Assembly (NCBI RefSeq): GCF_963921235.1
Contig: NC_086097.1
Coordinates: forward strand, 78,804,001-78,868,000
Length of the DNA stretch: 64,000 nt
DNA from: Mobula hypostoma
Lineage: Eukaryota
Reading direction: 5' to 3'
In this document: positions 1 to 56,640 of the stretch, one piece after another
How positions within the stretch are numbered: the first letter of the stretch is position 1
Layout of the letters: each line of letters opens with the position of its first letter
The notes under the pieces: model-generated
Database searches by the model: none
The model's input: the letters and a program-made list of their open reading frames with translations, nothing else
Told to the model about the DNA's origin: nothing
Translations under genes and position numbers: made by a program

Positions 1-1240
1 CAGGAGACTTCCTACCAGACTGCTCCCGGTCTACCTTATCCTTCTCACTAGTCCCCGGCTTACTTTCTGACTTTTCTGGCGGACTCTCCCCGCTGTCCTG
101 ACATCCCTTCTGGTAGCCTTTACTCGGGGAAAACTTCATTTTATGCGTCAACGCATACTCATCCGCTAACTTAGCAGTTGCGGCTAACGTGGCTGCCTCT
201 TTCTCATCCAGGTAGGATCTCATACCCTCAGGGACACAACCTTTAAACTGCTCAATCAGGATCAGTTGTAGCAGTCTGTCATAATCCCCCTCTACCCCCT
301 TCGAGGTGCACCAACGCTCACAATATGTCTGCATCTCACGGGCAAACTCTAAATACGTGCGGTCCCACTGCTTCCTCGCATTCCGGAACCTCTGCCGGTA
401 TACCTCCGGGACCAACTCATAAATCCTGAGGATGGCCTCTCTCACCACCTCATACCTCTGGGCATGTTCCGCGGACAAAGCTGAGTAAGCTTGTTGGGCT
501 TTTCCTTTCAGTACACTCTGAAGCAAAACAGCCCACTTATCCCTCAGCCAGTCCTGACTTGTAGCAACTTTTTCGAAATGGAGAAAGTACCAATCCATGT
601 TGGTATCGTCAAATGGGGGAACCAGCCTAACCTCCTGGGTCACCCGGAACCCTCCACCTTGGTTCGGCACGGGCCCCTGCTCTGCCCTTATCCTTAACTT
701 CTCCAGCTCAAATTCCCTTTCCCTCTGTTTCTCCTCTCACTCCAACTGTCTCTCTCTCTCTCTCTCCTGCCTTTCTAACTCTTTCTCTTTCTCCTGCCTT
801 TCTAACTGTTTCTCTTTCTCCCGCCTTTCTAACTCTCTCTCTTTCTCCTGCCTTTCTAGTTCTCTCTCTTTCTCCTGCCTTTCTAATTCTCTCTCTTTCT
901 CCTGCCTTTCTAACTCTCTCTCTTTCTCCCGCCTTTCTAACTGCTTCTCTTCGTGTTCTAACTGCCGTACCCGGAACTCGTGCTCGAGTCTCAGTTTTTC
1001 AAGCTGCACCTGTACCGCGTCTCCAGCAGGTTTTTCAATAGACACCACCTCCAGCTCGCCTTGGGGAAACACACCTTTTGATACATAGTGCTCTACGATA
1101 GCTCTGTGTATCTCCTCTCTCCTCATTGTCGACTTCCCCTTAGCAAGATTCAACCGTTTGGCCACAGCTACCAATTCCGATTTCCTGGCATCCTCTAATG
1201 CCTCCAAGGTCGGCGCCTTTATAATTTCTTCAGCCTCCAT
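1..1240 (-). pseudogene. gag: Gag with SCAN-like domain; premature TGA at 737-739
   Basis: ORF 737..1240 continues in frame past the stop: QLE*EEKQREREF...WAVLLQSVLKGKAQQAYSAL...YELVPEVYRQRFR...LILIEQFKGCVPE...AKLADEY. Confidence 0.85.
755..950 (-). repeat. In-frame 30-bp tandem repeat encoding (ERQEKERELE)n coiled coil in gag
   Basis: Repeated ctttctcctgcctttctaactctctct units; visible in the ORF translation. Confidence 0.85.
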
Positions 1241-2564: not shown

Positions 2565-3745
2565 AAAGAGACTCTGCAGTTGCTGAAAATCCAGAGCAAC
2601 ACACACAAAATGTTAGATGAACCCAGCAGGTCAGGCACTATCTATGGAGGGAATATACAGTTAATGTCTTGGGCTGAGACCCTTCATCAAGACTGGAAAA
2701 GAAAGGGGGAAGAATCCAGAATAACAGAGATATAGTTTCCTTTGTCCTTACCTACCACCCATCAGCCTTCATGTCCAGCACATTATGCTCTGTAACTTCT
2801 GCCATCTTTAGTGAGATCCTACCACCCTCCCCCCAGCTCCCACTCACCACTTTCCTCAGGGATTGCTCTCTACATGACTCCCTTGTCCATTTGTTCCTCC
2901 CCACTGATCCCCGCAAGTAGGGTAAGTACTTGCGGGGATCAGTGGGGAGGAACAAATGGACAAGGGAGTCATGTAGAGAGCAATCCCTGAGGATTCTTCT
3001 CCTCCCTCATCTCCTCCCTCACCACCACCATTCAGGGCCCCAAACAATCCATCCAGATGAGGCAACGCTTCATCTGCAAGTCTGTAGGGATAATCTACTG
3101 TACCTGGCACTCCCAGTGTGGCCTCCTCTACATCAGCGAGACTTGACTTAGATTGGGAGACCACTTCATCAAACACCTTCGCTCTGTCCACCACAACAGG
3201 CAGAACTTCCTGGTGGCCACCCATTTTAATTCTACTTCCCATTCCCTTTCAACATGTCACTCAATGACCTCCTCTACTGCTACAATGTGGCCTCTGTCAG
3301 GTTGGAAGATGAACACCTCATAATCCATCTCGGCAGCCTCCAACCTAACAACATGAACACCAATTGCCCTAACTTCCGGTAATTTCACCCCCCATCCCCC
3401 TTCACTCTTTTTACATTACCCATTCTGGCTCTAGGCTTACCCATTCTCTTTTCTCTTTACCTGCCCATCACCTCCCTCAGGTACCCTTCTCCTTTCCCTT
3501 TCCTCCATGGTCCACTCTCCTATCAGATTCTTTCTTCTTCAGCCCTTTACCTTTTCTACCTATCACCCCGCCCTCATCTGGTCTCATCTATCACCTGCTT
3601 ACTTATACTCCTCCCCCCCCCTCCTTATTCTGGCTTCTTCCACCTTCATTTTCAGTCCTGATGAATGATTTTGGCCTGGAACATTGATTGTTCATTCTCC
3701 TCTATAGATGCTGCCTGACCTGCTGAGTTCCTTCAGCATTTTGCA
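2565..3745 (+). mobile_element. Penelope-like element remnant: inverted 5' pseudo-LTR, GIY-YIG region, 3' pseudo-LTR
   Basis: Plus-strand sequence is homologous to the GIY-YIG region of 7905-8198. Terminal pLTR modules lie in opposite orientations with degenerate hammerhead motifs at 2658-2695 (-) and 3653-3690 (+). Confidence 0.8.
2853..2993. repeat. Perfect inverted repeat, 67-bp arms, 7-nt loop
   Basis: 2853-2919 is the exact reverse complement of 2927-2993; loop gggtaag. Confidence 0.97.
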
Positions 3746-6219
3746 ACTGGTGGTTAAATCCCTTTTAATTTTAGAGTTTTGTAAAGGAGCAGATTAATTG
3801 CCTAAAAAATTACTCATGCTAAAATGATCCCATAAAAGTCATCACTATAATATGGAAATTATTGGGAGGGAGTTCAAGCAAACATAATTTAAAAATACAA
3901 AGCTCAAGCTTTGTGCAGCTATTTGTTAAATTTTGCACATTTTCCATGGTCCATTTCCTAAACAGTGTAGCACTCTGCCTAAATGTATCTTCAGTCAGTG
4001 CAGTCCCATTGCTTATTAGAGTGCAAGCTAGCTCCCTTAAGATGACTGCACGTGCATAGTCCTTCATTCTGATTGAGGGGTTATTTACACAATAGGAGCA
4101 ATTGTGCACAATTAAAATCAGTGGCAGGTGTCACAAAAATGTCCAGTACCAATGTACTTTGTATTTCAGGTCCATGACATTAAGGAGTCACGAAACTCTG
4201 CAAGGTCTGCAGAGGAAGGGTGTAAGGGATAAGAATAATTTCAGATTCAGAGAAACACATAAAGATAATGTAGACCATTATGAGTATTCACTCAAGCTAT
4301 AGTATTGACGAGTATGATCAACGACTGCCTGCAGAAATTATTGATTTATGGTTGACACAGAGAAGTACAGGTAAGTTACAACAAGAAATAGGTCAGAAAG
4401 TGTGTGGTTGGTTTTCCAAACAGGCAAATAATTCTTTCACACCTACATGTCCTCTAAGATACTATTCTCTTTTTATTCATCTGACAGTCTTCAACATTCA
4501 TAAGCTTCTACGTCACCCACTAACCAAGTAAATTCCACATCCTTCTGCAAAATGCCACTAAATTCCAATAATCTGCACACTCAGGACTTAAATGGTGCCA
4601 GGACAGCAGATTTGCAGGATTTTTGAATTTTATTCCTAATTATTACGCACACATTTAATTCACTTTTTTTAAAGCTGTCACAGAATAATACAGTAATGTA
4701 ATATATTTTCCAATGAACCAAGTGAGTTTACAGAGAGAGAGGAAATTAATCTCTGGCAGTCTAAAAGGAGCATGGGAATCAGCATACAGTGAGCCAAATG
4801 CCAAAGCATCAGAATTCCCAAACAATTGGATAGTAGATTCTAGGTGTTTTACTAGTAGATCTCTTTCAAACCCTTCATTCTAAATCTTTTACATTTAATC
4901 TTCTGCCGAGGGCCCATCCATTATGATTCTTTAACTCAAGGCGTACAAATTTGCATTTAGTCAGCAATATAAGGAGCCCAGGTCAGTTGGCCTCTGGTGG
5001 CAATACTCGATTACGCACAAGACCCAGGGTATTATATGTGATATAATAAGCTTTACACATAAAAAATTCAGAAGGATCTCTCCTCCGCTAATTCCATCAC
5101 TGCAGTGCTAGCGGAAGATATCAGGTGACCAGTCAATTGTTTGGATGGGAGAGCTGATAGAGGACCCGCGTGTTAAGAGACTGTTGTGACAGGGTTGTTA
5201 AGGAAAGGCACAACATAGTGACAAGGGGCATGACTGAATAGAAGGGAACACTGAGAGATAAAAATAAGCTAAATAATGCCAAGGGAAGTGCATCTGGAGT
5301 CAGAAATGCAGTTAAGCTTTCTTTCAGGGAGGGGAACGTTTAGGGAGGTGGTTAGAGTTCTGAAATATGATAATGGTGCTGGGCTAGTGGGGGTGAATTA
5401 GCCAGTAATCAGAGATCCCAGAGAGATCAATAAGATGAGGGAGTGGTGGGGGGGGGTCAGCTCTGAGAACAAACACCAAATCAGGTGTTTAAAGTGGACA
5501 CCTTGGACTCCTCACTTATGACCCAGGGAAGTATGGTCCCCTTTAACTCTTGTTGTGGGACATGACTCACACGTTAACGCTCACTTTGGTATGATTGACT
5601 TGTACTGTTAAGGGCTTTGAGGTAGCAAATTAATTTTGCATTAGAAATGAAATTCAAACATCACAAAATATTTGATAATACTGCATTTGCCCAAGAATCT
5701 CTGTACTTGAGTTCACACAATGCATAGAAGAGCCAAAACTTTTTTTTAGATTATGCTATACATTGACCTAAATTATTTAGAAACTGTTTAAAATTACTTG
5801 GCATGGTGTCATTACCAAATTTGAAACAACTCCATATCATATTTTCCATAATTTAAACAAATAAGCTATACCATCACATAAGCAGCTGCAAACATAAAAT
5901 TTTAAATTTTTCTTCATGTCTGGCTAATCTAGACCAGTTGAACAACTTGGATTGGATTTCCGCAAATAAGGGTGCCGAAAGTAAACAGGTGTACGTGCTG
6001 AGCAATGAAGAGAGAGAAATGAAAAAACTGGCAAATAGAAAATGCAGTTACAAATTAGACAACAGAGGCTTTTATCCAAAGACACACACCTGAAGGAAAT
6101 GAGTTAGAATTTAAACAGTGAAACTAAAGTCAGTGTTTTGTGTTCAAAAAATAATTTATTTGTTCCACTATCAGTATTTTGTGTCTTGTGTACAAATATG
6201 TAATAGCAAACATTATAAC

Positions 6220-6652
6220 CCTTACTTTTGGCCAAAAGGTGACAAGGTGTGACTAAGAAATAAGGTGATAATTGTCAGCTAATTCCATAACTTCATATAT
6301 CTTCAGAGTTTTTGTCTGGGTGGGATAGGTTTTTGTATTGCTTATGCCTGACATGACGAATAGTGCTTTAATGTTATGCTTGGAAGCGCCTCCCTTCTTA
6401 ATTAATCAAATTGTGAGGGGGGTTAGAGGGCTGTCAGAAATATTTCTTTGACACATGACTTCATCAAGAAAAGAAAAATGCTTGCTAAGTCGAATTTGAA
6501 AAGCACAAGTGATTAATCATTTTGCAGTGTATATAATAAATCAAATGACATGTATTTCCTCCCATGAAGGGCGCATGATATTGAGAAACAGCATTTTTAA
6601 AAAAGAAATCCTACTGTTAACTAGATTGTTCACATTTTGGCCGAAAGTAAGG
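6220..6652. mobile_element. Candidate old MITE / non-autonomous DNA transposon
   Basis: ccttacttttggccaaaaggtg (6220-6241) matches the reverse complement of 6631-6652 (ccttactttcggccaaaatgtg) at 20/22; no clear TSD. Confidence 0.45.
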
Positions 6653-7477
6653 AATGTGATGTGCAACACAAGGAATATAAATCTTACCTACATCGAGCAC
6701 TGACTCCAGATGGAACCCCGTGGAGCCAGAGCAAGTATAGTAGTTATTACTGTGGTTTTACTAATAAATATTTTCCCATTTTACCTTGTCCTTCATCATT
6801 TCAACCTGAATCTAGAATTTTGTGCTTACTCCCAATCTAACCGCATTGAACTCAATCACCTTAGACCAGAACATACTGTTTACAGCAGGAATCTCACACT
6901 TGATGTTGTATTATAAAATAAGCTTTTGTGTCTTCATGTTTGTAAACTCTCTTCAAGCTATTTGCCCAGTTTTCAATTACTCAGGCATGTACACAGGTGG
7001 ATGCCAATGCTTTTTCCCAGCTGTTTCATTGGTAAGCCTTGTTCTGCACCCTATCCCTAAACATCACAAGTTACCTTACAAAGGTAGTGAGAGAAAATGC
7101 GGATAATAAACATCTAAATATCTTCAAGTTCCAAAACATTTAATCAAACAATTAAAAACTGAAAATCACCTGACACTTTGGAACATCCTCCATTGAGACT
7201 GTGAGGGGTTCCTCACATATCCTAAAGGTGTGCTGCTGAGTATTTGGTCACTGTAATTTACCCCAAACATTGGTGAGTGGCAGGGTAACAAGTAGAGAGC
7301 TGAGGGGCTTGTGAGAGGAAATAGGTTACGGAGATATGTGGGAGGAAGAGACGGGTGGAAATTGAGTGACAGCAGCATAGTATCAGAAAGAAAACAAGGT
7401 TTATTATAACTGATATATGTTGAAAATATGTTGTTTTACAGCAGCAGTACAGTGAAAAATATAAAGAATTATTATGC

Positions 7478-8498
7478 AAACAACAGGAATTCTGCAGATG
7501 CTGGAAATTCAAGCAACACACATCAAAGTTGCTGGTGAACGCAGCAGGCCAGGCAGCATCTGTAGGAAGAGGTGCAGTCGACGTTTCGGGCCGAGACCCT
7601 TCTTCAGGACTAACTGAAGGAAGACTGAGTAAGGGATTTGAAAGTTGGAGGGGGAGGAGGAGATCCAAAATGATAGGAGAAGACAGGAGGGGGAGGAATA
7701 GAGCCAAGAGCTGGACAGGTGATGGGCAAAAGGGATACGAGAGGATCATGGGACAGGAGGTCCGGGAAGAAAGACAAGGAGGGGGGGACCCAGAGGGTGG
7801 GCAAGAGGTATATTCAGAGGGACAGAGGGAGAAAAAGGACAGTGAGAAAAAGAATGTGTGCATAAAAATAAGTAACAGATGGGGTACGAGGGGGAGGTGG
7901 GGCCTTAGCGGAAGTTAGAGAAGTCGATATTCATGCCATCAGGTTGGAGGTTACCCAGATGGAATATAAGGTGTTGTTCCTCCAACCTGAGTGTGGCTTC
8001 ATCTTTACAGTAGAGGAGGCCGCGGATAGACATGTCAGAATGGGAATGGGATGTGGAATTAAAATGTGTGGCCACTGGGAGATCCTGCTTTCTCTGGCGG
8101 ACAGAGCGTAGATGTTCAGCAAAGCGGTCTCCCAGTCTGCGTCGGGTCTCGCCAATATATAAAAGGCCACATCGGGAGCACCGGACACAGTATATCACCC
8201 CAGTCGACTCACAGGTGAAGTGTTACCTCACCTGGAAGGACTGTTTGGGGCCCTGAATGGTGGTAAGGGAGGAAGTGTAAGGGCATGTGTAGCACTTGTT
8301 CCGCTTACACGGATAAGTGCCAGGAGGGAGATCAGTGGGGAGGGATGGGGGGGACGAATGGACAAGGGAGTTGCGTAGGGAGCGATCCCTGCGGAATGCA
8401 GAGGGGGGGAGGGAAAGATGTGCTTAGTGGTGGGATCCCGTTGGAGGTGGCAGAAATTACGGAGAATAATATGTTGGACCTGGAGGCTGGTGGGGTGG
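7478..8498 (-). mobile_element. Penelope-like element 3' fragment (Cys-rich linker, GIY-YIG endonuclease, pLTR)
   Basis: ORF 7905..8198: IYCVRCSRCGLLYIGETRRRLGDRFAEH...RLEEQHLIFHLGNLQPDGMN, a PLE GIY-YIG domain; hammerhead in the pLTR. Confidence 0.93.
7576..7611 (-). ncRNA. Minimal type-I hammerhead ribozyme, core intact
   Basis: AGUC-CUGAAGA-A-GGGU(CUCG)GCCC-GAAA-CG-UC-GACU: stem I AGUC/GACU, CUGANGA, stem II, GAAA, palindromic ACGU in place of helix III, GUC cleavage triplet. Confidence 0.85.
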
Positions 8499-8509
8499 TA
8501 CCTACATAT

Positions 8510-8794
8510 TATTCTCATATTGTTCACTTTCCTAAAGAGTTTACTTATTCAGAAATTCTTGAGTTTTGGGATCCATGGAAACTTGGCTTGCATGGATTCT
8601 GATTTGACTTGCCTACAGAAGGCAGAAAGCGGCAGTAGATGGAGTGCATTCCGCCTGGAAGTCAGTGACGAGTTGTGTTCTGCAGGGATCTGTTCTGAGA
8701 TCCCTGCTTGCTGCGATTTTTATAAATGACTTGGATGAGGAAGTGGTTTAGTAAGTTTGCAGAAGGTTGATGGTGTTGTGGATAGTGTAGGATG
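8510..8794 (+). mobile_element. CR1 LINE RT fragment (left part, interrupted by Gypsy)
   Basis: cagggatctgttctg...tttataaatgacttggatgagg...agtaagtttgcaga corresponds to the QGSVL / IND / SKFAD region. Confidence 0.7.
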
Positions 8795-11451
8795 GTCACA
8801 AATTAGTGGGGCAGGCCTGATTATTAAAAGGGGCCACACAGGTAATCCATATTCTGGCGAGCTAGAGTATCTAAACTCTGGGGGCTGGCACAGTCAGTTA
8901 ACAGGACACCTTCCCTACGGTTGACTCCTGGCATGATGGTGGTCATGGATGAGCATCACATCCAAGAAGTCTCTTTCCAGAACCCAGCACTGTTCCTTGG
9001 GTCCGAATCCTTCTCAGTTTATGAGGAGTTACAGAAAACCCTGGACAGTTCAAGAAAGCAGAATTCTTTTTCCAGTGAAGACCTGTTACCCATCAACACA
9101 CTTGGGTTGCAGCGGGACTGATGGTGGTGAGGCTAAAAGACTGATTTTACAGGTTTTAATTTTGAAATGTGGAAGGTGGAATTGATCTTGAGGGTCTTGG
9201 GGAGCTGCAAGGTGTTAGCCACCGGGTTTACTTTTTTGAGACCTTGAAGGGTCCAATGAACTTGGGTGCCAACTTCCTGGACTCCACCCGGAGAGGCAAA
9301 TCCTGAGTAGATAGCCAGACCTGTTGCCCAGTCTGCAAAGCTGGTCCCTGTCTTCTCTTGCAGTTAGCCTTCATTTCAGCCTTCTGGGTAGAGGCCAGCA
9401 AAATCTCCCCTGCCCTGCTCCAAATTCCTTGTAGCGTCAGACAAGATCTTCAGCCCCAGGAACCCCAACCTCAGTCTCTTGCTCAAGGAAGAATGGCAGA
9501 GAATACCCAAAATGGCATTCAAACAGGGATATCCTGTGTGCAGAATGCCATAAAGTATTGTGGCGACCTCTATCCAAATCAGATGGTCTTTCTGAGGCCA
9601 GGCACTTTAAGGTTCATTCCATATCCCAGCTCACCCGCTCTGTCTGGCAGTTGGACTGCCGGTGAAACCCGGAGGGAAAACTTGCTGTTGTTCCAGTCAG
9701 TGTACAGAATGCCCTCCAAAAACGTGATGCAAATTGAGGACTACAATCTGACAAAATTTCCACTGAAAATCCATGGATCCTGAAGACCTTGTGCAGGACA
9801 ATTTTGGCTGTCTCTGCTGCAAATGGTAGTTTGTCCAATGCAATGAGTTTGTAGGCCTTCAAAAAACAATCTACAAATACCATGATGATGGTCTTCCCCT
9901 TGGAAGCTGGAAGACCCGTGACAAAGTCCATGGAGAGGTGCGCTTATGGTCTGTCTGGAACAGGTGAAGGAGCCCTTGAGATTGGGTGCAGGGCTCCTAG
10001 CTCTGGGCGCACACCTCGCATGCCTGCACGTATTGTAGGACCTTCCCTCGCCATTCCAGGCCACCGGTATCTTCTCTCGATGAACTTGAGGGCCCTGGCT
10101 ATCTCTGGGTGAGTGGTCATTCTTGATGCGTGTCCCCATTGAAGTACCTGAGATCTGATGGAACTTGGGATGAACAGACAACCAAGAGGATTGTTTTTGG
10201 GAATCTCCCCTTGCGCCTGGGCCTTGCGAACAAGTGCATTGATGCCCCAATGAAATGGCGCTATTACCTTACCTTGGGGAAAAACGGTGGCAGGCTGCTC
10301 TTTTCTTTTGGTTTTGTCAAACTGACGGGACATGATATCTGGTTTCTGATTCTTTGACCCTGGTCAATAGGTCAGGATGAAATTGAAGTGTTTAAATAAA
10401 AGAGACCACCTGGCCTGCCTGGAATTCAGTCTTTTAGCCTTCTGAACATAAGTCAGGTTGTTGTGGTCTTGGCCCCCTCAAGCCAGTGACGCCATTCCTC
10501 CAAAGCCAGCTTGACCTCAAGCAGCTCTCTATTGCCAACGTTGTAGTTCACCGCTGGCAGGTGTTAGCCGCCTGGAGAAGAATGCACATGAATGCAGTTT
10601 ATTGTCCAAAGGTGTCCGTTGAGACAACACTACACCCACTCTGATGTCCGAGGTGTCCAACTCTACGATGAAGAGAAGTTAGGTGAAACCAAAATGGGAG
10701 CTGTTGTAAACCACTGTTTGAGTTCTGCGAAAGCACCCTCCACTTCAGTAGACCAAACCAAGGGCCCATTGATCTCTGAGTTAGTGCTGTCAGTGGAGTC
10801 ACCGCTCAGCTGAAGTTCCTGATGAACTTTCTGTAAAAGTTGGCAAATCCCAGGAATCATTGGCCTTGTTCCATATTGGATGGCTGTGGCCAGTCTTTGA
10901 CTGCTTGTGCCTTAGTGGGGTCCATCTTGAGATTGCCATGAGAGATGATAAAACCCAAAAATGAAATGATGTTTTTGTGAAATTCAGATTTCTTCAACTT
11001 GATATAAAGTCAGTGATCTAGAAGCCTCTTTAAGGTATTTCTGACGAGGACTTGAGAAGATTTGGATATTATCCGAGTAGACAAAGGCATACTTATGGAG
11101 AGCATCTGGATCACATCATTTATGAACCCTAAAAAACTGCTCTCACGTTCTCAAGGCCAAAGGGCATGACCAGGTACTCAGAGTCCCCTGTTGGTGTGTT
11201 GAATGCAGTATTCCACTCGTTGCCCTCCTTTATGAGGACCAGATTGTACACACTCCACAAGCTTCGAGAATACTCTTGCCCCTTGGAGAATCTTGGAAGC
11301 AGTGTTCATGAGTGGAAGGAGTTTAAGATTTTTGACTGTTATGCGATTCAGCCCAATATAATCAACACATGGCCACAGGCTCCTGTCCTTTTTCTATATA
11401 AAAAAGAAGCCTGCGCCAGTGAGTGAGGTGGAGGGCTGAAGAACCCCATGG

Positions 11452-23885: not shown

Positions 23886-26859
23886 AGACTTCCGGTAGCG
23901 CTCATGGAGTGAAGTCGCGTTCTTGACTCGCTCCATTACCTCTGAGTTTTTTTTCTCTATGGTCAGCTATACTTTAATTAACCATTAAGGCATCAACTCT
24001 TACAATACTTTGAATTAAACTGAATTCTCCGACAACTGGATGGAACTTAGATCTGCTATGTCTAAGAACGAGAAAGACGGCAAGGATGGTAAACCTCCGG
24101 TTAAACCGAAAGCTACGGATCTCCCTCCGACTGAATCACCGGTGACTTTGAAAGCGATATCGGAGTTAATTCAGAGGGAAATCTCAACCTCTGTTAGGGA
24201 GATGATTCGTGCGGAAATTGCAGGCCCTGTTAAAGACCTGATTCATACGGAAATCTCAACTAATTTCCAGAAAATTGCCGCTTTAATTGATAAGATGCAA
24301 ACATGTATTGCGGAACATCAGTCGGCTATATCTGATCTTCAAAAATTCGCGCAACAAAGTGAGCTTAAGATGGGGAAAATCGAAGAAACAATTAATGTAA
24401 TGAAGAAGAAACTTGACTTTTTGACTTTTAAAAACTCTGACTTGGAATCTAGAATGCGACGGCAGAATTTACGAATGATTGGCGTGAGGGAAGCCGCTGA
24501 AGGTAACAACCCCATGAAATATTTCTCCCAACTTTTAAAAGATGCATTCCCTACTGTATTTCCTGACCAACCACCGCTACTGGATCGTGTTCACAGAACC
24601 CCATCATACTCGTCTAGGTCAGATAGACCTCGGCATGTTATCTTACGTTTTCATTACTTTCAAGACAAGGAGAGACTGTTTCGATTCGCTCGATCTAAAG
24701 GTTTCATTGATTTTTCGGATCTTAAGTTCCGATTCGTGGAAGATTTCAGTAAACCAATCTGGGACCAACGGGTCCGTTACAGATCCGTGATGTCGGAATT
24801 CTATAAGATGGATTTAAGACCAGCGCTGCTGTACCCTGCACGTCTAAGGATTCGCATGGCAGATGGAGCCCTTCGTTTTTTTGATTCTCCATCGGATGCC
24901 CAGAGTTATCTGGATCAACTTTCATCTCCAACATCTTAATTGCTTTCTTTTTAATTTTCTCCGTCGATCGGAGGCTGTGAATTGGTTGGTTTTAACTTTT
25001 CTGTGCCCTATTTGGGCAGAAAAGTTTACTTTCGATTTCTTAATATGGCTACTAAACTTTCTTTTTAACTGCGTCATTTCTTTCTTTTCCCAGGGGATTC
25101 TGGGTGGTTACTTCCCTTTTGTCATCTTACGTATTTCCTGTGCGGCCTTAAATTTTGTAGTTTTTGTTTAAATTTTATTTTGTTTTGCTTTTTATAATCA
25201 CTTTATGTTAATAATCCTATTTTTTTTTTTGTTGCTGTGTCTATTCATGAGTTTGAGGTTTATTGTGGTTTTTTTAAATATATATTTTCCGGCTTTTGAT
25301 CTGTTCTGTGTGTATTCTAATTGAGTTAACTTTTTTTTACTTATTTTTTTACTGTTTTACAATTAGCTGATCCTTTTCATATTTATACCTTTTTTTTAGG
25401 GAGCGTATACCGGAAGTCATGGGGGTAGTTTTAGCGCTTGCTTCTTTCTGGCGGGTCTGCTTTAGATTTTGCCTTGGGGTCTTGGGCTGGGGGGTGGCGG
25501 GAGGGGCTTCACGTTTTAGTTTGTTTTTCTTTGGGCTATATACATTATTGAAGTACTGGTTGCGTCCTTTTCCCCGGTATCTTTTGTATGTTCTGTTTCC
25601 TCTCCGGGTTTGTGGGTCGCGCCTATTGTCAATCCTCCTCGTCGTGGGTTGACTTTAGGATTTATGGAGTCTATTATTAATTTTGTCTCCTGGAATACTA
25701 ATGGTCTTAATCATCCTATTAAAAGAAAAAAAGTTTTTAAAGTGTTCCGGAGACTTAAAGCACAAATTTTATTTTTACAAGAGACCCATGTACGGAGGGG
25801 GGACAGACTACGTTTTTTCAAATTCTGGAAGGGACAACAATTTCATTCGAACTCCAATGCTAAGATTCGAGGCGTCTCTATTTTTATAGATTCCTCAGTT
25901 ACTTTTATACAACAGGATATTATCTCTGATCCGAATGGTAGATTTTTATTGGTTAGTGGTTTACTATTTAATAAAAAAGTAGTTTTGGTTAATGTTTATG
26001 CTCCTAATATGGATTGTCCGGAATTTTATAAATCATTGTTTGATCAGTTTCCGAATTTGAACGAGTTTTCATTGATTTGGGGCGGAGATCTTAATACCTG
26101 TTTATCTCCAGCTTTGGACCGTTCGGCTCCTTTACGGACTTTACCTAATAAATCTGCAAATTTGATTAATTTTTTCCTTTCTGATTCTGGGTCGACGGAT
26201 ATTTGGCGTTTTCTGCATCCTCAGGAAAAAGATTTTTCCTTTTTTTCACATGTTCATCATTCCTATTCAAGAATTGATTATTTTTTTATTGATTCTCGTC
26301 TCATTCCTTCAGTGATTAAATGTGATTATGATTCTATAACCATTTCGGATCATGCTCCACTTAAGCTTTCTATTAAAATTATGGCCAATATACCAAACAA
26401 TAGACAATGGCGTTTTAATTCGCTGTTGCTTCAGGACTCGGACTTTGTTAATTTTATGAATGAACAGATTGAGCTTTTTTTTATAATTAACCATACAGAA
26501 GATATTTCGGTTAACACTCTTTGGGACACTTTTAAAGCCTATATTCAGGGTCAGATTATTTCGTATTCCGTTGCTTTGAGGAAGAAACAGAAGCAGGAGG
26601 AGATGGCAATTGTGGACAAGATTAAAGAAATTGATAAGAAATATGTTATGGCTCCTTCTGAGGAGCTATACAAACAAAGAACTGAACTTCAAATGGAACA
26701 CAGTTTACTACTCTCGTCCTCGATTGTAAACCAATTAAAGAAAACAAGAAGTGATTTTTATGTTCACAGTGATAAAATTGGCAAGCTGCTGGCTAATCAA
26801 TTGAAATCTAATTATGTTAAATCTCAAATCAATCAGATTTATAACCAAAATGATCGATT
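23886..26859 (+). mobile_element. L1-clade LINE, 5'-complete, 3'-truncated in ORF2, 15-bp TSD
   Basis: Starts AGACTTCCGG; intact ORF1, T-rich spacer, intact endonuclease; ggtagtgggagcttg at both 23871-23885 and 26860-26874. Confidence 0.95.
24040..24939 (+). CDS. L1 ORF1p (coiled coil + RRM + CTD), 299 aa, uninterrupted
   Basis: DLESRMRRQNLRMIGVRE, LDRVHR, RPRHVILRF, LLYPARLRI motifs. Confidence 0.92.
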   Translation: MELRSAMSKNEKDGKDGKPPVKPKATDLPPTESPVTLKAISELIQREISTSVREMIRAEIAGPVKDLIHTEISTNFQKIAALIDKMQTCIAEHQSAISDLQKFAQQSELKMGKIEETINVMKKKLDFLTFKNSDLESRMRRQNLRMIGVREAAEGNNPMKYFSQLLKDAFPTVFPDQPPLLDRVHRTPSYSSRSDRPRHVILRFHYFQDKERLFRFARSKGFIDFSDLKFRFVEDFSKPIWDQRVRYRSVMSEFYKMDLRPALLYPARLRIRMADGALRFFDSPSDAQSYLDQLSSPTS

Positions 26860-26899
26860 GGTAGTGGGAGCTTGTCCCCATTACCACTCCCATCTATAA
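25664..26899 (+). CDS. L1 ORF2 N-terminal part: intact APE endonuclease, no RT; reads through the TSD to a stop in the flank
   Basis: VSWNTNGL, LQETH, NVYAPN, GGDLN, YSRIDYFF, SDHAP, WRFN motifs; likely ATG at 25664. Confidence 0.88.
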   Translation: MESIINFVSWNTNGLNHPIKRKKVFKVFRRLKAQILFLQETHVRRGDRLRFFKFWKGQQFHSNSNAKIRGVSIFIDSSVTFIQQDIISDPNGRFLLVSGLLFNKKVVLVNVYAPNMDCPEFYKSLFDQFPNLNEFSLIWGGDLNTCLSPALDRSAPLRTLPNKSANLINFFLSDSGSTDIWRFLHPQEKDFSFFSHVHHSYSRIDYFFIDSRLIPSVIKCDYDSITISDHAPLKLSIKIMANIPNNRQWRFNSLLLQDSDFVNFMNEQIELFFIINHTEDISVNTLWDTFKAYIQGQIISYSVALRKKQKQEEMAIVDKIKEIDKKYVMAPSEELYKQRTELQMEHSLLLSSSIVNQLKKTRSDFYVHSDKIGKLLANQLKSNYVKSQINQIYNQNDRLVVGACPHYHSHL

Positions 26900-30994: not shown

Positions 30995-33300
30995 GAGAAG
31001 ATCTGCAGATGCTGAAAATCCAAAGCAAAATGCTGGAGGAACTGAGTAGGCCAGGCAGCATCTATGGAAAAGAGTAAACAGTCGACGACTCAGGCCAAGA
31101 CCCTTCATCAGGACTAGGGAAAAAATGAGGCGAGCAACAAGGCTGGGGGAGGGGAGAAAGATGTACAAGGTGGCGGCTGATAGGTGAAGCCGGGAGAGAG
31201 GGAGGAGTGAAGTAAAGAGCTGGGAAGCTGTTAAGTGAATCTGATAGGAGAGGGTAGAAGACCATGGAAGAAAGGGAAGGGGAAGGTAGGAGATGGGCAG
31301 ATGAGGAGATAAGGTGAGAGAGAAAAACGCCAATGAAAATGGTGAAGGGGAAGGGGAATTACCAGAAGTTTGGGAAATCGATGTTCATGCCATCAGGTTG
31401 GAGGCTACCCAAACTGAATATAAGGCGCTGTTCCTCCAATCTGAGTGTGGCCTCATCGCGGCAGTAGGGGAGGCCATGGACTGACATGTCAGAATGGGAA
31501 TAGGAGGTAGAATTGAAATGACCACCGAGAGATCCCACTTTTTCTGGCAGACGGAGAGTAGATGCTCGGCAAAGTAGTCTCCCAGTCTACGATAGGTCTC
31601 ATCAATCTACAGGAGGCCACAACAGGAGTACCGGATACAATCGATGACACCAACAGACTCACAGATGAAGTGTCATCACCTCAACTGGAAGGACCGGTTG
31701 GGGCCATGAATGGTAGTGAAGGAGGAGGTGTAGGGGCAGGCATGGCAATTGTTCAGCTTGCAAGGATAAGTGGCAGGAGGGAGATCAGTGGGGAGGGATG
31801 AATGGACAAGGGAGCTATGAAGGGAGTAGAATCTCTGTGGAAAGCAGAAGGTGGGGGATGGGCGGGGGAAGATGTATTTGGTGGTGGGATCCTATTGCAG
31901 AGGGCAGAAGTTACAGAGAATTATGTGCCGGACATGGAGGCAGATGGGGTGGTAGGTGAGGACAAGACGAACCCTATCCCTGGTGGAGTGGCAGGAGGAT
32001 GGGATGAGGGCAGACGTGTGAAATGGAAGAGATGTGAGTGAGGGCAACGTTGACGGTGGAGGAAGGAAAACCCCCTCCTTTGAAGAAAGGGGACATCTCA
32101 TTAGTTCTAGAATGGAAAGGTTGATCCTAAGAGCAGATGCAGTGAAGATGGAGGAATGAGAGAAGGGGATGGCATTTTTACAAATAACAGAGTGGGAAGA
32201 AGTATAGTCGAGAGAGCTGTAAGAATGAGTGGATTTATAAAAGAGATCAGTAGATAAACTGTCTCCAGAGACAGAAACAGAGAGATCGAGAAAGGGGAGG
32301 GAGGTGTCAGAAAAAGACCAGGTAAATTTGAGGGCAGGGTGGAAGTTGGAGGCAAAGTTGATGAAGTTAATGAGCTCAGCATGGGTGTAGAAAGCAGACT
32401 CAATGCGGTCATTGATGTAGCACAGGAAAAGCTGGGGAGTGATACTGGTGTAGTCTTAGAACATGGACTAAGACTACACCAGTATCACTCCCCAGGTATC
32501 TAGGAAGAAGCAGAGAGCTTTAAGACCCTCCTGATGGGCGTCCGTGATGAAAATGAGATGATCGAGGCCAGGGAACCTGAAGTCATTGTAGAAATCGAGA
32601 GTCCGTGAAGTGGGATATAGGTAGGAAGGGACTGACCAGGGTGGGGGGGGGGGGTGGGGGGAGGTATGCAGATACAAATCGGTGGGGCAAGAACAAGCAG
32701 AAATAATGGGTCCACCTGAACAGGCAGGTTTATGGATCTTGGGTAGGAGGTAGAAACAGGAAGTGTGAGGCAAGGGAACTATGAGGTTGCTAGCAGTGGA
32801 TGGGAGATCCCCAAAGTTAATAAGTGATGGTTCAGGTAACAATGGCCTGGTGAACCTTAGTGGGGTCATGTTCAAGGGATAATTAAGAGGAGGTGTCTGA
32901 GAGTTGTCAATTGGCCTCAGCAAGGTAGACGTCAGTCCACCAGATGACTGCAGCACCCCACTTATCTGCGAGTTCGATGGTGAGTTCAGAATTAGTGTGG
33001 AGAGAGTGGAGAGCTGAGCATTCGGAAAGAGTGAGATTAGAATTGGAGAGCAGAGTGGTAAAGTTGAGCTGGTTATGTCTCATTGGCAGTTAGCAGTGAA
33101 AAGATCCAGAGCAGGCAGAAGATCAGAGCAGAGTAATCTGAAATGAAAGTGCTTACTCAAAGCTTTGTCTGGTGGTCTGGGATAGATCAGCAGATCAAGC
33201 ATCTTGCCGTGCACTGTTTGGGATGCTAATTCATCCAGAAGATGCCAAGAGCAGTGCCTCTCCATCCCTGGGAATGGCCTCCTAAGAGTTCTTTCAATAG
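30995..33300 (-). mobile_element. Penelope-like element (RT, GIY-YIG, pLTR), degenerate
   Basis: FYLLPKIHKP...PIISACSCPT (32474..32956); RVRLVLTYHP; GIY-YIG region 31370-31700; hammerhead with mutated GAAA at 31080-31115. Confidence 0.9.
32432..32495. repeat. Perfect inverted repeat, 28-bp arms, 8-nt loop
   Basis: 32432-32459 is the exact reverse complement of 32468-32495. Confidence 0.95.
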
Positions 33301-38210: not shown

Positions 38211-39007
38211 GTGTTGTGAAATTTCACCATGTACAAGCCCGCACTGCTTCATTCTTTTAAGTTATGGAAGTGGGTGGGAAGGCAAGTAAGATTTGGTTGC
38301 AAATGGTAAACAAGTATGACAGTATCAGCTGCTTTTTATGCTTCCCACAAAAGAAATAAATGTACCTAAAAGTATCACGGTGGATCTGAATGCATCAGAA
38401 TTTATCCCTGCTTGCTAATAACATGTGCAGATTGCATTCTGCTGTGGATTATTCGTAACCAAATTAAATTTGGAATGCTTTGTGGTCTGTACACATGGAA
38501 AATTCCAGGTCTATTTTCTGAAATAGAATCACTTGGCAACAAATAATATATTCCGGCTTTTTGCCACAGCAGTTTGAACTGAAAAACATTGCAGGGAACA
38601 GCAACATTGAAACATCGTGCAATGTCAATCATGGTAATTTATGAAGTACCCCACCTTGTACCTGTGAATATACATAGTATGGAATGTAGTAACCGCCAAC
38701 AGAGTAACAGCTGCTTGATCAAGACCTTTCTAGTTTGGTTCATGCAAAGAACAGATATAATTCTGTCAACTCACACAAAATGCTGGTGGAACGCTGCAGG
38801 CCAGGCAGCCTCTATAGGAAGAAGTACAGTCGAAGTTTTGGGTTGAGACCCTTCATCAGGACAAACAGAAAAAAGAAATAGTAAGAGATTTGAAAGTGGG
38901 AGGGGGAGGGGGAGACCCGAAATGATAGGAGAAGACAGGAGGGGGAGGGATGAAGCCAAGAGCTGGGAAGTTGATTGGCAAAAGGGATACAAAGCTGGAG
39001 AAGGGCG

Positions 39008-39626
39008 GGAGGAGAAGATGGTGGTGCACCTGCGTGTGTGCAGCCCTCCGGTGAAAAATGATATCGTATCTGTTAAATAGGGGCCGTGGACAATTCTGAT
39101 TTGATGGAGAATGGACGTGAAAGCACAGAGGAACATCTGGAGAAATTTCTGAAACGCCCATTCGCTGCTGTCGTTACTGTGTGGTCGGGAATCTTTCGGA
39201 GGGTAGGCCTCAAAATCCCCGGCCTTGCCTGCTTTTGGTGACCGAGAAGGAGGTCGAATCGTTCGGACAGAGATGGCACTCAGTACTCGGTGTCGGAGAG
39301 CTGATCAGAGCTCGAAGTTTTCGGATGACTCAGAGTCAGATTGTGGTCGGCATGGCAGGGAGAGTTTTTCTTCCTTCTCCCGTCTGCATGAGATGTGGGA
39401 CATTTGAGAAACTTTGAACTTTACTGTGCTCATGGACTTCTTAATCAAGTTATGTCATTGTTGTACTATTGTAACTATAAGTAATAATTATGCGGTTTTG
39501 TCAGTTTTTTCAGTCTTGGTCTGTCTTGTGTTTTGTGATATCAAACCGGAGGCAATAATGTATCATTTCTTAATGCAAGCATTACTAAGTGACAATAAAA
39601 GAGGACTACGTGTCTTCATAATCTAA
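39008..39626 (+). mobile_element. Non-coding SINE-like/non-autonomous retroelement inserted in the PLE pLTR
   Basis: Interrupts the pLTR (compare 7730-7760); CpG-rich body, AATAAA at 39594 and a short (AATCT)-type tail; no coherent ORF. Confidence 0.65.
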
Positions 39627-39763
39627 TCATAGGATGGAGGGCCTTGGAAGAAAGAATGGGGGAGGGGAGCACCAGAGGAAGATGGAGAACAGGCAAGGAG
39701 TTATTGGGAGAGGGAAAGAGAGAAAAAAAAATTAGGAATGGGGTAAGAACGGGAGGAGGGGCA

Positions 39764-40957
39764 TTAACAGAAGTTAGAGAAATCAACTTTTATGCCATCA
39801 GGTTGGAGGCTACCCAGACAGAATATAAGGTATTTTTCCTCCAACCTGAGTGTGGCTTCATCTTGACAGTAGAGGAGACAATGGATTGACATATCGGAAT
39901 GGGAATGAGACATGGGATTAAAATGTATAGCCACTGGGAGATCCTGCTTCCTCTGGCAGACAGAGCATAGGTGTTCAGCGAAGTGGCCTCCCAATCTGTG
40001 TCGGGTCTCACCAATATATAGAAGGACGCACTGGACGCAATATATCACACCAGCAGACTCACAGGTAAAGTGTCGCCTCACCTGGAAGGACTGTTTGGGG
40101 CCCTGAATGGTGCTAAGGGAGGAAGTGTAAGGGCATGTGTAGCACTTGTTCCGCTTACACGGATAAGTGCCAGGAGGGAGATCAGTGGGGAGGGATGAGG
40201 GGGACGAATGGACAAGGGAGCTGCGTAGGGAGTGATCCCTGCGGAATGCAGAGAGAGGGGGGGAGGGAAAGATGTGCTTGGTGGTGGGATCCCATTGGAG
40301 ATGGCGGAAGTTATGGAGAATTATATGTTGGACACGGAGGCTGGTGGGATGGTAGGTGAGGACAAAGGGAACCCTATTCCTAGTGGGGTGGTTGAAGGAT
40401 GGGGTGAGAGCAGACGTGCGTGAAATGGGAGAGATGCGTTTGAGGGCAGAGTTGATGGTGGAGGAAGGAAAGCCCCTTTCTTTAAAAAAGGAAGACATCT
40501 CCTTCATCCTGGAATGAAAAGCCTCATTCTGAGAGCAGATGTGGCAGAGACAGAGGAATTGAGAGAAGGGGATGGCATTTTTACAAGTAACAGGGTGGGA
40601 AGAGAAATAGTCCAGGTAGCTGTGAGAGTCCGTAGGTTTATAGTAGACATCAGTAGATAAGCTGTCTCCAGAGAAAGAGACAGAGAGATCAAGGAAGGGG
40701 AGGGAGGTGTCAGAAATGGACCAGTTAAATTTGAGGGCAGGGTGGAAGCTGGAGGCAAAGTTGATGAAGTCAACGAGATCAGCATGCGTGCAGGAAGCAG
40801 CACCAGTGCCATCCTCTTCTCTCAATTCCTCTTTCCCTCTCACAACAACTCCTTGCCTGTTCTCCATCTTCCTCTGGTACTCCCCTCCCCCTTTCTTTCT
40901 TCCAAAGCCCTCCGTCCGATGGTACTCCCCCTTCTCTAGCTTTATCCCTTTTGCCAA
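39764..40957 (-). CDS. Chimeric 397-aa ORF: inverted-pLTR-derived N-terminus fused to the PLE RT C-terminus and GIY-YIG endonuclease
   Basis: ORF track; junction near 40808; no RT catalytic YxDD motif. Confidence 0.5.
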   Translation of the reverse strand: MAKGIKLEKGEYHRTEGFGRKKGGGEYQRKMENRQGVVVRGKEELREEDGTGAASCTHADLVDFINFASSFHPALKFNWSISDTSLPFLDLSVSFSGDSLSTDVYYKPTDSHSYLDYFSSHPVTCKNAIPFSQFLCLCHICSQNEAFHSRMKEMSSFFKERGFPSSTINSALKRISPISRTSALTPSFNHPTRNRVPFVLTYHPTSLRVQHIILHNFRHLQWDPTTKHIFPSPPLSAFRRDHSLRSSLVHSSPSSLPTDLPPGTYPCKRNKCYTCPYTSSLSTIQGPKQSFQVRRHFTCESAGVIYCVQCVLLYIGETRHRLGGHFAEHLCSVCQRKQDLPVAIHFNPMSHSHSDMSIHCLLYCQDEATLRLEEKYLIFCLGSLQPDGIKVDFSNFC

Positions 40958-41068
40958 TCAACTTCCCAGCTCTTGGCTTCATCCCTCTCCCTCCTGTCTT
41001 ATCCTATCATTTTGGGTCTCCCCCTCCCCCTCCCACTTTCAAATTTCTTACTATCTCTTTTTTCCATT

Positions 41069-41104
41069 AGTCCTGATGAAGGATCTCGACCCGAAACGTC
41101 AACT
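41069..41104 (+). ncRNA. Minimal hammerhead ribozyme, core intact, stem mismatches
   Basis: AGUC-CUGAUGA-A-GGAU(CUCG)ACCC-GAAA-CG-UC-AACU. Confidence 0.7.
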
Positions 41105-52034: not shown

Positions 52035-52358
52035 TAAGCAACACACAAAATGCCAGAGGAATTCAGCATGTCAGGTCCATGGAAGTGAACTGTCAATGTT
52101 TTAGGCCAAAACCCTTCTTCAGTACTGGAAAGGAAGGGGGAAGATGCCAGAATCATTTTTAACTCCTCTGTACTCCATGACTTTTGTTAACGGAGTGAGT
52201 AAATAAAATTTTACAGAAAATCAAAGCAATTGTAGACGCTGGAAATCTAAAATAAAAACAGAAAATCCCAATCACAAGAAAGTCTGCAGATGCTGGAAAT
52301 CCAAAGCAACACATAGGAACTCAGCAGGTCAGGCAGCATCTATGGAAATGAATAAACA
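52035..52358 (-). mobile_element. PLE pLTR fragments; the last is split by a CR1 and resumes at 54208-54425
   Basis: ctgcagatgctggaaatcc...ctcagcaggtcaggcagcatctatgg modules; degenerate hammerheads at 52090-52127 and 54208-54245. Confidence 0.75.
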
Positions 52359-54211
52359 TAGAAACATAGAAACATAGAAAATAGGTGCAGGAGTAGGCCA
52401 TTTGGCCCTTCGAGCCTGCACCACCATTCAGTATGATCATGGCTGATCATCCAACTCAGAACCCTGTACCAGCCTTCCCTCCATACCCCCGATCCCTTTA
52501 GCCACAAGGGCCATATCTAACTCCCTCTTAAATATAGCCAATGAACTGGCCTCAACTGTTTCCTGTGGCAGAGAATTCCACAGATTCACCACTCTCTGTG
52601 TGAAGAAGTTTTTCCTAATCTCAGTCCTAAAAGGCTTCCCCTCTATCCTCAAACTGTGGCCCCTCGTTCTGGACTTCCCCAACATCGGGAACAATCTTCC
52701 TGCATCTAGCCTGTCCAATCCCTTTAGGATCTTATATGTTTCAATCAGATCCCCTCTCAATCTTCTAAATTCCAACGAGTACAAGCCCAGTTCATCCAGT
52801 CTTTCTTCATATGAAAGTCCTGCCATCCCAGGAATCAATCTGGTGAACCTTCTTTGTACTCCCTCTATGGCAAGGATGTCTTTCCTCAGATTAGGGGACC
52901 AAAACTGCACACAATACTCCAGGTGTGGTCTCACCAAGGCCTTGTACAACTGCAGTAGTACCTCCCTGCTCCTGTACTCGAACTCTCTTGCTATGAATGC
53001 CCGCATACCATTCGCCTTTTTCACCGCCTGCTATACCTTCATGTCCAATTTCAATGACTGGTGTATAATGACACCCAGGTCTCGTTGCACCTCCCCTTTT
53101 CCAAATCAGCCACCATTCAAATAATAATTTGTTTTCCTGTTTTTGCCACCAAAGTGGATAACTTCACATTTATCCACATTAAATAGCATCTGCCATGAAT
53201 TTGCCCACTCACCCAACCTATCCAAGTCACTCTGCATCCTCGTAGCATCCTCCTCACAGCTAACACTGCCACCCAGCTTCGTGTCATCCGCAGACTTGGA
53301 GATGCTGCATTTAATTCCCTCATCCAAGTCATTAATATATATTGTAAACAACTGGGGTCCCAGCACTGAGCCTTGCGGTACCCCACTAGTCACCGCCTGC
53401 CATTCTGAAAAGGTCCCGTTTATTACCACTCTTTGCTTCCTGTCTGCCAACCAATTTTCAATCCACATCAATACCTTACCCCCAATACTGTGTGCTTCAA
53501 GTTTGCACACTAATCTCCTGTGTGAGACCTTGTCAAAAGCCTTTTGAAAATCCAAATATACCACATCCACTGGTTCTCCCCTATCCACTCTACTAGTTAC
53601 ATCCTCAAAAAATTCTATGAGATTTGTCAGACATGATTTTCCTTTCATAAATCCATGCTGACTTTGTCCGATGATTTCACCGCTTTCCAAATGTGCTGTT
53701 ATCACATCTTTGATAACTGACTCTAGCATTTTCCCCACCACCGATGTTAGGCTAACCGGTCTATAATTCCCCGGTTTCTCTCTCCCTCCTTTTTTAAAAA
53801 GTGGGTTACATTAGCCACCCTCCAATCCTCAGGAACTAGTCCAGAATCTAACGAGTTTTGAAAAATTATCACTAATGCATCCACTATTTCTTGGGCTACT
53901 TCCTTAAGCACTCTGGGATGCAGACCATCTGGCCCTTGGGATTTATCTCCCTTCAATTTACCTAACACCACTTCCCTACTAACATGTATTTCCCTCAGTT
54001 CCTCCATCTCACTAGACCCTCTGTCCCCTACTATTTCTGGAAGATTATTTATGTCCTCCTTAGTGAAGACAGAACCAAAGTAGTTATTCAATTGGTCTGC
54101 CATGTCCTTGTTCCCCATAATCAATTCACCTGTTTCTGTCTGTAGGGGACCTACACTTGTCTTAACCAATCTTTTTCTTTTCACATATCTATAAAAGCTT
54201 TTACAGTCAGT
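52354..54211 (-). mobile_element. Young 5'-truncated CR1 LINE with (TTTCTATG)n tail
   Basis: Long ORFs 53747..54316, 53106..53741 and 52437..53024 with VYLDFQKAFDKV, GVPQGSVLGP, ADDTKL, VRPHLEYCVQFWSP; three 8-bp tail repeats. Confidence 0.95.
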
Positions 54212-55019
54212 CGACATTTTGAGCCGAGACCCTTCTGCAGGACTGAAGAAGAAAACAGAAAATGCTGGAAATATTCGAAAGATTACTACGGGTCCTACCT
54301 TAGGGTCCCAGCCCAAAACGTCAACTGTGCTTTTTTTCCATAGATGCTGCCTGACCTGCTGTGTTCCTCCAGCATTTTGTGTGTGTTGCTTGGATTTCCA
54401 GCATCTGCAGGTTTTCTCTTGTTTGTGAGAAGATTATCACTGTTCCATTTTCAATATTGTTACCAAATCTTAAAACTGATTGAGGTTATAGGCCACTTGC
54501 AAGAGTACAAATAGGCGCAGTTGGCCTCTTGTGCATTTGTGTCATTCTACCTGTGCTAATGGTATCTACCAGTTCAGGGACAAATAAAAGTCGAGCTTTA
54601 CTGAGGGTGCCCTGCATATGTGTTATCACAAGAGCAAACATTTGTACTTTAAAATATTTGCAAGGTGTTGGTATTGCAGTCAGGCTTGGGGAAGATTTTG
54701 TTCTATTGATGTGCCCATCAGTGAAGCAATAAAATAATTGTAATTCCTGGTTAAGTTTATTGTGCCATCTCAATCAGATTATTTGTTATCTGTTACTCAC
54801 TGTTTTGTAATTTTGTAACCTTGTAATGAATATGTGATATAATTGACTGAAATCTCGAGGAACCTCACTCAGATTGTGGATTTTGAATTCCAGTATATAA
54901 TATGAGACAGATCTTAAGTACTTACTCTGCAGTGAGGGAATGGTCAGCTGGTATATAGAGTTTACACACAGTCTTAAAAAACCTAACAGCAGACCTAATA
55001 ATGGTATTTATTTGACATT

Positions 55020-55854: not shown

Positions 55855-56640
55855 AAAATAATCTGCAGATACTGCGGTCAAAGCAACACTCACAACACGC
55901 TGGAGGAACTCAGCAGGTCGGGCAGCATCCGTGGAAAAGATCGGTCGACGTTTCGGGCCGGAACCCTTCGTCAGGACTGTAGGGGGAAGGGGTAGAGGCC
56001 CTGTAAAGAAGGTGGGGGGAGGGTGGGAAGGAGAAGGCTGGTAGGTTCCAGGTGAAAAACCAGGAACGAGAAAGATAAAGGGGTGGGAGAGGAGAGGCAG
56101 GGAGGTGATAGGCAGGAAAGGTGAAGAAAGAATAGGGGAAAACTCAATGGGTAGTAGAAGGAGGCAGAACCATGAGGGAGGTGGTAGGCATCTGGGGGAG
56201 GGGGCAGAGTGACATGAGGCTCCGCTTCATCGAGCACCTCCGCTCCGTCCACCAAAACAGACAGGATCTCCCAGTAGCCACCCACTTCAACTCTGCTTCC
56301 CATTCCCGTTCAGATATGTCCATACATGGCCTCCTCTACTGCCATGATGAGGCTAAACTCAGGTTGGAGGAGCAACACCCCATATACCGTCTAGGTAGCC
56401 TCTAGCATCTTGGTATGAACATAGAATTCTCCAACTTCCGGTAATTCCCTCCCCCTCCCTTCCTCTATCCCTATTTCACTCTGTCCCCTCCCCCAGCTGC
56501 CTATCACCTCCCTCATGGTTCCACCTCCTTCTACTACCCATTGTGTTTTCCCCTATTCTTTCTTCACCTTTCCTGCCTGTCACCTCCCTGCCTCCCCTCC
56601 CCCGCCCCTTTATCGTTCCCCTTACTGGTTTTTCACCTTG
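55855..56640. mobile_element. PLE fragment with inverted duplication (pLTR on minus, GIY-YIG C-terminus and partial pLTR on plus)
   Basis: 56050-56212 is inverted relative to 56476-56638; ORF 56172..56405 RFIEHLRSV...RLEEQH. Confidence 0.88.
55943..55979 (-). ncRNA. Minimal type-I hammerhead ribozyme, core intact
   Basis: CAGUC-CUGACGA-A-GGGU(UCCG)GCCC-GAAA-CG-UC-GACCG. Confidence 0.82.

Follow-up and report, generated by a model that had tools for sequence, protein, structure and literature searches.

The window (the whole stretch of 64,000 nucleotides of Mobula hypostoma DNA that was analysed) contains, on its minus strand, the 5'-truncated copy of a Penelope-type element (PLE), which includes a hammerhead motif (Table 1). 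Read base by base, the motif at 7576-7611(-) is a complete minimal type-I hammerhead with every core letter kept. It is located in the terminal repeat (pLTR) and is in sense to the PLE ORF, both in the window and in long-frame copies from the genome. The preliminary description of this DNA had proposed, for a Penelope pLTR, a minimal type-I hammerhead that lacks helix III, and the motif indeed agrees letter for letter with the published consensus.

Table 1. Hammerhead motifs and parts of their PLE host family in the window
Feature	Position	Strand	Remark
5'-truncated PLE copy: ORF end, 3' UTR/pLTR, hammerhead, tail	7479..8500	-	95.7% identity to full-length copy L044
Optional PLE "tail"	7479..7514	-	spans +65 to +100 counted from the cut site; a 3' end cluster on either side
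Helix I 5' strand	7611-7608	-	part of 7576 motif
Core CUGAAGA	7607-7601	-	part of 7576 motif
Extra A (after A9)	7600	-	part of 7576 motif
Helix II (4 bp, 4-base loop)	7599-7588	-	part of 7576 motif
GAA	7587-7585	-	part of 7576 motif
ACGU, in place of helix III	7584-7581	-	part of 7576 motif
C17	7580	-	predicted cut between 7580 and 7579
Helix I 3' strand (4 bp)	7579-7576	-	part of 7576 motif
GIY-YIG endonuclease frame, end of PLE ORF	7905..8222	-	Pfam PF01541, 24.7 bits, cut-off 22.6
Decayed motif (C3>U, G12>A, A14>G)	2659..2694	-	
Decayed motif (A13>G, helix II broken)	3654..3689	+	head-to-head with 2659-2694
Decayed motif (A14>G, A15.1>U)	31080..31115	-	behind ORF remnants 31365-33129
Decayed motif (G12>A), 3' end of unit 38759-41200	38828..38863	-	
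3' part of PLE ORF (end of RT, zinc linker, endonuclease)	39738..40809	-	87-88% identity to best genomic relatives
Motif, core letters intact, helix I and II mismatches	41069..41104	+	inverted pLTR (40946-41200) of unit 38759-41200
Decayed motif (G12>A)	52091..52126	-	
Motif with A6>C and G12>A; position-6 C marks subfamily	54209..54244	-	
Partial copy, begins inside helix II, tail present	54302..54423	+	head-to-head with 54209-54244
Second intact motif, other subfamily (UCCG loop)	55943..55978	-	descriptor and letters

Remnants of other retroelements are also found in the window. At 9614-10363(-), an LTR retrotransposon has left remnants of its integrase (core and zinc-binding domains) in two frames. 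An L1-type ORF1 (Transposase_22) followed by a 459-aa endonuclease frame is encoded at 24019-26899(+), and LINE-type reverse transcriptase and endonuclease fragments are located at 35015-36307, 47336-47782, 53106-53810 and 60747-63012. An imperfect inverted repeat of ca. 150 bp (55020-55171) has no match to the PLE reference.

The ten motif sites that had been proposed are all present, each at or within 1-2 bases of its proposed position. A profile built from nine copies recovers all ten (E<=2.4e-15) together with two downstream-only fragments in the window, and a 25-letter core pattern has 7 window matches where 0.03 are expected (100 shuffles). The cores at 7576, 41069 and 55943 had been considered intact. 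This is correct for 7576 and 55943, which are the only sites in the window to pass a structure descriptor (hammerhead core letters plus helices I and II), the 8 other copies failing it. It does not hold for 41069: helix II contains an A.C mismatch, the core-adjacent pair of helix I is mismatched as well, and this copy does not pass. Core letters are altered in the six further full-length copies, often by CpG decay of G12, and the 54302 copy lacks the 5' core. A C that had been attributed to N7 in one of these copies (now 54209) is in fact at position 6 (A6C).

When the descriptor was applied to 1.46 Mb, it returned 41 matches, 40 of them from the PLE family of 7576, and 0 in each of 3 shuffles. 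The sole unrelated match (C9 block, offset ca. 104,265(-), L121 region) has an 8-bp helix II and an AUAU palindrome and perhaps belongs to another PLE family.

Covariation among the copies had been expected and is absent within this family: among nine aligned window copies, 0 of 8 pairs are changed on both sides, and the observed score was equalled or exceeded in 500 of 500 shuffles. Pairing of stem II is mostly kept, as had been stated, not by compensation, however, but because the stems hardly change. As they are nearly invariant, the fold is neither backed nor ruled out by this analysis. Rfam covariance models yielded 18 matches up to E=1, none of them to a hammerhead family. The microRNA-like matches among them were rejected, being long inverted repeats; near-perfect palindromes at 2855-2990 and 32425-32501, where PLE ORF fragments meet head-to-head, are the source of such spurious matches.

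The host element

The GIY-YIG frame of the window ends with a stop codon ca. 295 nt ahead of the hammerhead. In a protein search of the own genome (3.48 Gb) of this cartilaginous fish, 104 matches were scored of 236,812 candidates, and 20 copies with a long open frame were taken. In these chosen copies, the motif is invariably found ca. 295 nt past the stop codon (20/20). Two of them (L036 and L044) have a second, direct motif before the ORF, 3,494 and 3,506 nt upstream, and seven have an inverted 5' motif. The long-frame copies have their first ATG downstream of the tail, ca. 145 nt from the cut site. A frame of 1,009 aa codes for RT followed by a C-terminal GIY-YIG domain, both of which score below the Pfam cut-offs (the window's own GIY-YIG passes), and ahead of the endonuclease is a CX4CxxC linker (residue 876 of L036). 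The PLE family of 7576 shows pLTRs in direct or inverted arrangement, 5' truncation and a tail of 30-40 nt, the last being described in PMC8557442 and PMC11167929. In copy L040 (7700-7790), a small head-to-head pair of hammerhead ends lies just beyond the tail of a long inverted PLE pair.

Judged by these sequence features, the host of the 7576 motif is an endonuclease-positive PLE with a zinc linker of the Neptune/Nematis type. According to Craig et al. 2021 (PMC8557442), a CX2-5CxxC linker marks Neptune and Nematis and is absent from Penelope/Poseidon. Elements of the two former clades share with the Mobula element a single ORF with RT followed by GIY-YIG, cysteines between the GIY and YIG parts, the linker, 5' truncation, partial tandems, inverted copies and the tail; the assignment is by the linker and does not tell the two clades apart. 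The Penelope/Poseidon clade was rejected because the linker zinc finger is present. To that clade belongs the element PAc from Anolis carolinensis (Frangieh et al. 2024, PMC11167929), in which the ORF begins inside the hammerhead, whereas the Mobula ORF has the CX4CxxC linker and its first ATG beyond the tail.

Non-LTR retrozymes have likewise type-I hammerhead units derived from PLEs and are reported in the one chondrichthyan sampled in that study (bioRxiv 10.64898/2026.07.22.740005). An assignment to this class was rejected: as described there, it consists of tandem arrays of non-coding units, whereas the Mobula copies are solo or inverted (a same-strand neighbour in 1 of 44) and are tied to ORF remnants.

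Abundance and lineages

Exact 34-mers of the motif occur 45,476 times genome-wide, 6,605 with C and 38,871 with U at position 11.1, and 0 times for the controls. The Mobula family thus has at least 45,476 exact copies, compared with 4,000-9,000 reported for coelacanth and Xenopus (PMC4209133). A sample of seven 200-kb blocks at arbitrary round genome positions (1.4 Mb) gave 281 profile matches (reversed control: 0), of which 188 cover the motif and 158 are readable without gaps. The extra base is A in 152 of these 158, which confirms the constancy that had been noted for it. As a family-specific mark it does not stand, however, since the extra A, like the ACGU palindrome, belongs to the published architecture of PLE hammerheads in general (PMC4209133). 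The palindrome reads ACGU in 73 of the 158 copies, and the next two classes (29 and 28) are CpG-decay forms of it.

Four subfamilies, defined mostly by their flanks and comprising 92 of the 158 copies, agree at 29-33 of 36 motif columns; in the flanks, agreement is limited to 4-18 columns upstream (of 24) and 4-8 downstream (of 14), these being lower bounds because the comparison is ungapped. Among young copies, core and non-core changes number 3/396 and 15/660 (p=0.085), a comparison on which no weight is placed, as the base content differs.

Two lineages have amplified with non-canonical letters. One has C at core position 6 (22 of the 158 sampled copies; 297 exact A6C copies genome-wide), and as these 22 have flanks in common, they represent an amplified lineage. 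In the other, which is the dominant young lineage, helix II is closed by G·U, while 7576 and 55943 have a G10.1-C11.1 pair. U at 11.1 is found in all 20 long-frame copies, and the youngest lineage has C7 in addition.

The motif class is already known, and the Mobula family adds to it. With the minimal hammerheads (min-HHR) described for the terminal repeats of metazoan PLEs (Cervera and De la Pena 2014, PMC4209133) it shares the type-I topology, the missing helix III loop, a CG palindrome at 15.2-16.2, one additional base between 9 and 10.1, a U-rich upstream tract and the pLTR position, as well as the prevalence of solo truncated copies and the occurrence of opposite-strand pairs. The Mobula family differs by its short helix II (4 bp), by G10.1-U11.1 instead of G-C in the dominant young lineage and by the A6C lineage. 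A term search in the text of supplement file 2 of that paper gave no shark or ray name. In the open-access literature, nothing was found on the hammerhead of the Mobula family or on 5' ends at helix I.

Ends of genomic copies

Positions are numbered from the G after the predicted cut (GUC/G), which is 0; the G that opens helix I is -31. Of the 5' ends of 61 young copies, 12 are at -33..-31 and 2 at 0/+1. The 3' ends of 66 young copies cluster at +65..70 and +95..108; as these are beyond the cut site, the inserted copies run through it.

For genome-wide counts of starts, patterns were used that demand non-native letters before a given position. Among roughly 45,000 copies, 1,693 start at -31, 1,059 at -32 (with a stricter prefix) and 291 at the control position -34, while ca. 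43,000 carry native upstream sequence. For the downstream part (84,083 copies), the cut site itself has 487 starts, compared with 157 at +2 and 82 at -2, a raw excess of 3-6 times over these neighbouring positions. Junctions were read for the first 30 (-31), 30 (0), 20 (+2) and 20 (-2) among the matches listed, which are not random draws. Host junctions were read for the -31 class; the -32 class, with unreadable flanks, is covered by counts only.

Nineteen of the 30 listed copies that start at -31 are joined to unique host DNA, and 13 of these 19 have a target-site repeat of 6-15 nt on both sides, which abuts the motif directly in 8 cases. No upstream exon common to the 19 was seen. The 3' end is at +59..108 in 29 of the 30. 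The -31 class consists of 100-135-bp insertions that contain the whole uncut ribozyme.

Starts at the cut site are of a different kind (p=1.4e-4 for -31 versus cut-site junctions). Only 4 of the 30 listed are host-joined, none of these with a target-site repeat of at least 6 nt; the rest are 20 inversion junctions, 4 deletions or point changes and 2 cases from one local tandem. In 14 of the 30, the arms of an inversion overlap in GAC/GACT, the complement of helix I. Such inversions are explained by the self-complementarity of helix I and need no cleavage. A cleavage footprint, as might be read from the raw excess at the cut site (487 versus 157 and 82), was rejected because it is mostly made up of inversion junctions. 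Upon scaling, the host-joined counts are 1,072 (742-1,356) at -31, 65 (18-150) at 0, 24 (5-59) at +2, where one of three "host" cases looks partly inverted and would lower this control, and 25 (10-45) at -2. A small real excess of host-joined starts at the cut site is possible.

Three separate insertions (L195, L196 and L197) have one junction in common, with an inverted arm to exactly -31, an extra A and a direct arm from the cut site. In four runs of uncertain type (contigs), considered for expression, ends did not pile up and the joints close to helix I are not of the GT-AG type; these runs were given no weight.

Role of the hammerhead

The isolated 37-mer of 7576 has, as its computed lowest-energy fold, the two-helix hammerhead frame with helix III absent. 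For a dimer, the double hammerhead is at -16.1 kcal/mol, 9.4 above the best dimer fold (-25.5 kcal/mol; tertiary contacts left out), and for the young form it is 18.8 kcal/mol above (again without tertiary terms), C7 pairing into the cut site. In the youngest lineage, C7 also permits a competing fold that is more stable than the hammerhead frame by 4 kcal/mol. In the natural context (112-140 nt), the pairing probability of the hammerhead helices is below 0.1, which is a weak result since nearest-neighbour folding ignores tertiary contacts. Dimers of PLE minimal hammerheads are reported to cleave weakly (PMC4209133), and the anole Poseidon hammerhead to cleave only with the element's protein (PMC11167929). 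Dimer dependence of the 7576-type hammerhead is plausible.

Few partners are available for such a dimer. Within 4 kb, 29 of 44 young copies from the sample are without a young neighbour, 14 have one on the opposite strand and a single copy has one on the same strand; as close neighbours are mostly inverted, cis dimers should be rare. Three close motif pairs of the window are head-to-head, and the motifs that neighbour 7576 and 55943 on the same strand are broken in core and palindrome alike. Cleavage at 7576 would require both a minus-strand transcript and an intact partner, and no such cis partner is present in the window. It had been suggested that any transcript crossing these sites could self-cleave. 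This is unlikely, considering that only 2 of 10 motifs are intact, that same-strand partners are scarce and dimer energies unfavourable, and that published cleavage is weak or protein-dependent.

As the best explanation, to which we assign a probability of about 0.6, the motifs are dead terminal-repeat copies of an abundant endonuclease-bearing PLE, in which the hammerhead likely forms the first 36 bases of the transcript and likely cuts rarely, either as a double hammerhead or with the help of protein. As judged from the DNA copies, transcription would start at -32/-31, with the first base(s) of helix I. This start site presumably conforms to an initiator-like YYANWYY pattern. Because thousands of copies begin at helix I and not at the cut site, the RNA of the element likely begins at the front edge of the ribozyme and is likely copied mostly uncut.

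Reverse transcription would begin internally at two sites in the tail and run through the uncut ribozyme to the 5' end of the RNA, yielding 100-135-bp inserts with target-site duplications. The tail start sites and the uncut template have a parallel in the anole element, for which internal initiation at the tail, protein-assisted cleavage and, in vitro, unprocessed RNA as the main template are described (PMC11167929). PAc has two internal RT starts that bound a tail downstream of the hammerhead (PMC11167929), as the Mobula family would, and copies of both contain the uncut ribozyme. The anole motif is dispensable for insertion in vitro, and catalytic mutants are without effect there (PMC11167929). 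As proposed in published work, two motifs would form a 4-bp helix III through the ACGU palindrome and be cleaved after GUC, by which either a leader of 31-32 nt would be lost or a tandem transcript opened. The hammerhead is likely a slow cutter that depends on a dimer or on protein, its cleavage being likely a side or regulatory step that insertion does not require. Cleaved RNA could matter in vivo and yet go uncopied.

Alternatively, the two motifs of a tandem transcript might pair and both be cut, and the ligated circle of 3.5 kb would serve as a template for longer-than-unit copies. Such a route, proposed in PMC4209133, would suit the geometry of L036 and L044 with their direct motifs ca. 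3.5 kb apart, and a re-ligated circle would also account for copies that cross the cut site. A circle has no 5' end at -31/-32, however, where the strongest boundary is found; a direct 5' pLTR motif is present in only 2 of the 20 chosen long-frame copies (an inverted one in 7), and the anole catalytic mutants insert unimpaired in vitro (PMC11167929). We consider this unlikely as the general route; it may apply to a minority of long copies.

It is equally improbable that the motif is a relic, no longer a working ribozyme but retained as a signal near the promoter or for protein binding, its hammerhead letters being coincidental. Naiad PLEs have spread without canonical hammerheads (PMC8557442), and the A6C lineage was amplified (22 of 158 sampled and 297 exact copies); a natural A6C variant had low activity (PMC3088659). 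The youngest lineage, with U11.1 (38,871 versus 6,605) and with C7, has the competing fold that is 4 kcal/mol lower. G.U and A6C weaken hammerhead activity without abolishing it, which we count against a relic. Across the subfamilies, the remaining core letters are conserved, as are the extra A and the palindrome; moreover, hammerheads of the same design but with different stems are found in separate phyla (PMC4209133), and the anole motif does cleave, being rescued by a compensatory core change (PMC11167929).

Rather than a transcription start, the boundary at -31/-32 might mark a 3' splice site or a point at which reverse transcription is blocked. In all subfamilies, a pyrimidine tract and AG are directly ahead of the motif, and an intron of Drosophila virilis ends at helix I (PMC4209133). 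We regard this as very unlikely, given that the 19 host-joined copies have no common upstream exon and that the target-site repeat abuts the motif in 8; in addition, an enzyme that copies RNA from 3' to 5' should reach helix I at +3 and not at -31. That a repeat resembles the short hammerhead consensus by mere chance is next to negligible: the motif is short and has no Rfam match, and its copies, all from one ancestor, do not count as independent support, but the descriptor had 41 matches in 1.46 Mb against 0 in 3 shuffles, and the motif is located in the pLTR of a PLE and has all four extra features of the published class (PMC4209133).

Returning to a hammerhead at the transcript's start that is mostly copied uncut, it is tempting to speculate further, although we consider this bolder version doubtful. 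The hammerhead would be the first fold of the transcript and a self-decapping switch, held off by the element's protein during copying. Lineages with a weakened switch (A6C, the G.U closing pair, C7) would have amplified freely, and the thousands of 100-135-bp inserts would map the transcription start and the two RT starts of a vertebrate Neptune-type element.

This young and very large family is a test bed for the role of PLE hammerheads. It offers a genome-wide record according to which inserted copies stem from uncut RNA that would start at the ribozyme, and it illustrates how fold-back on helix I can mimic a "cleavage footprint" at the cut site. Its natural core variants are on offer for cleavage and transposition assays.
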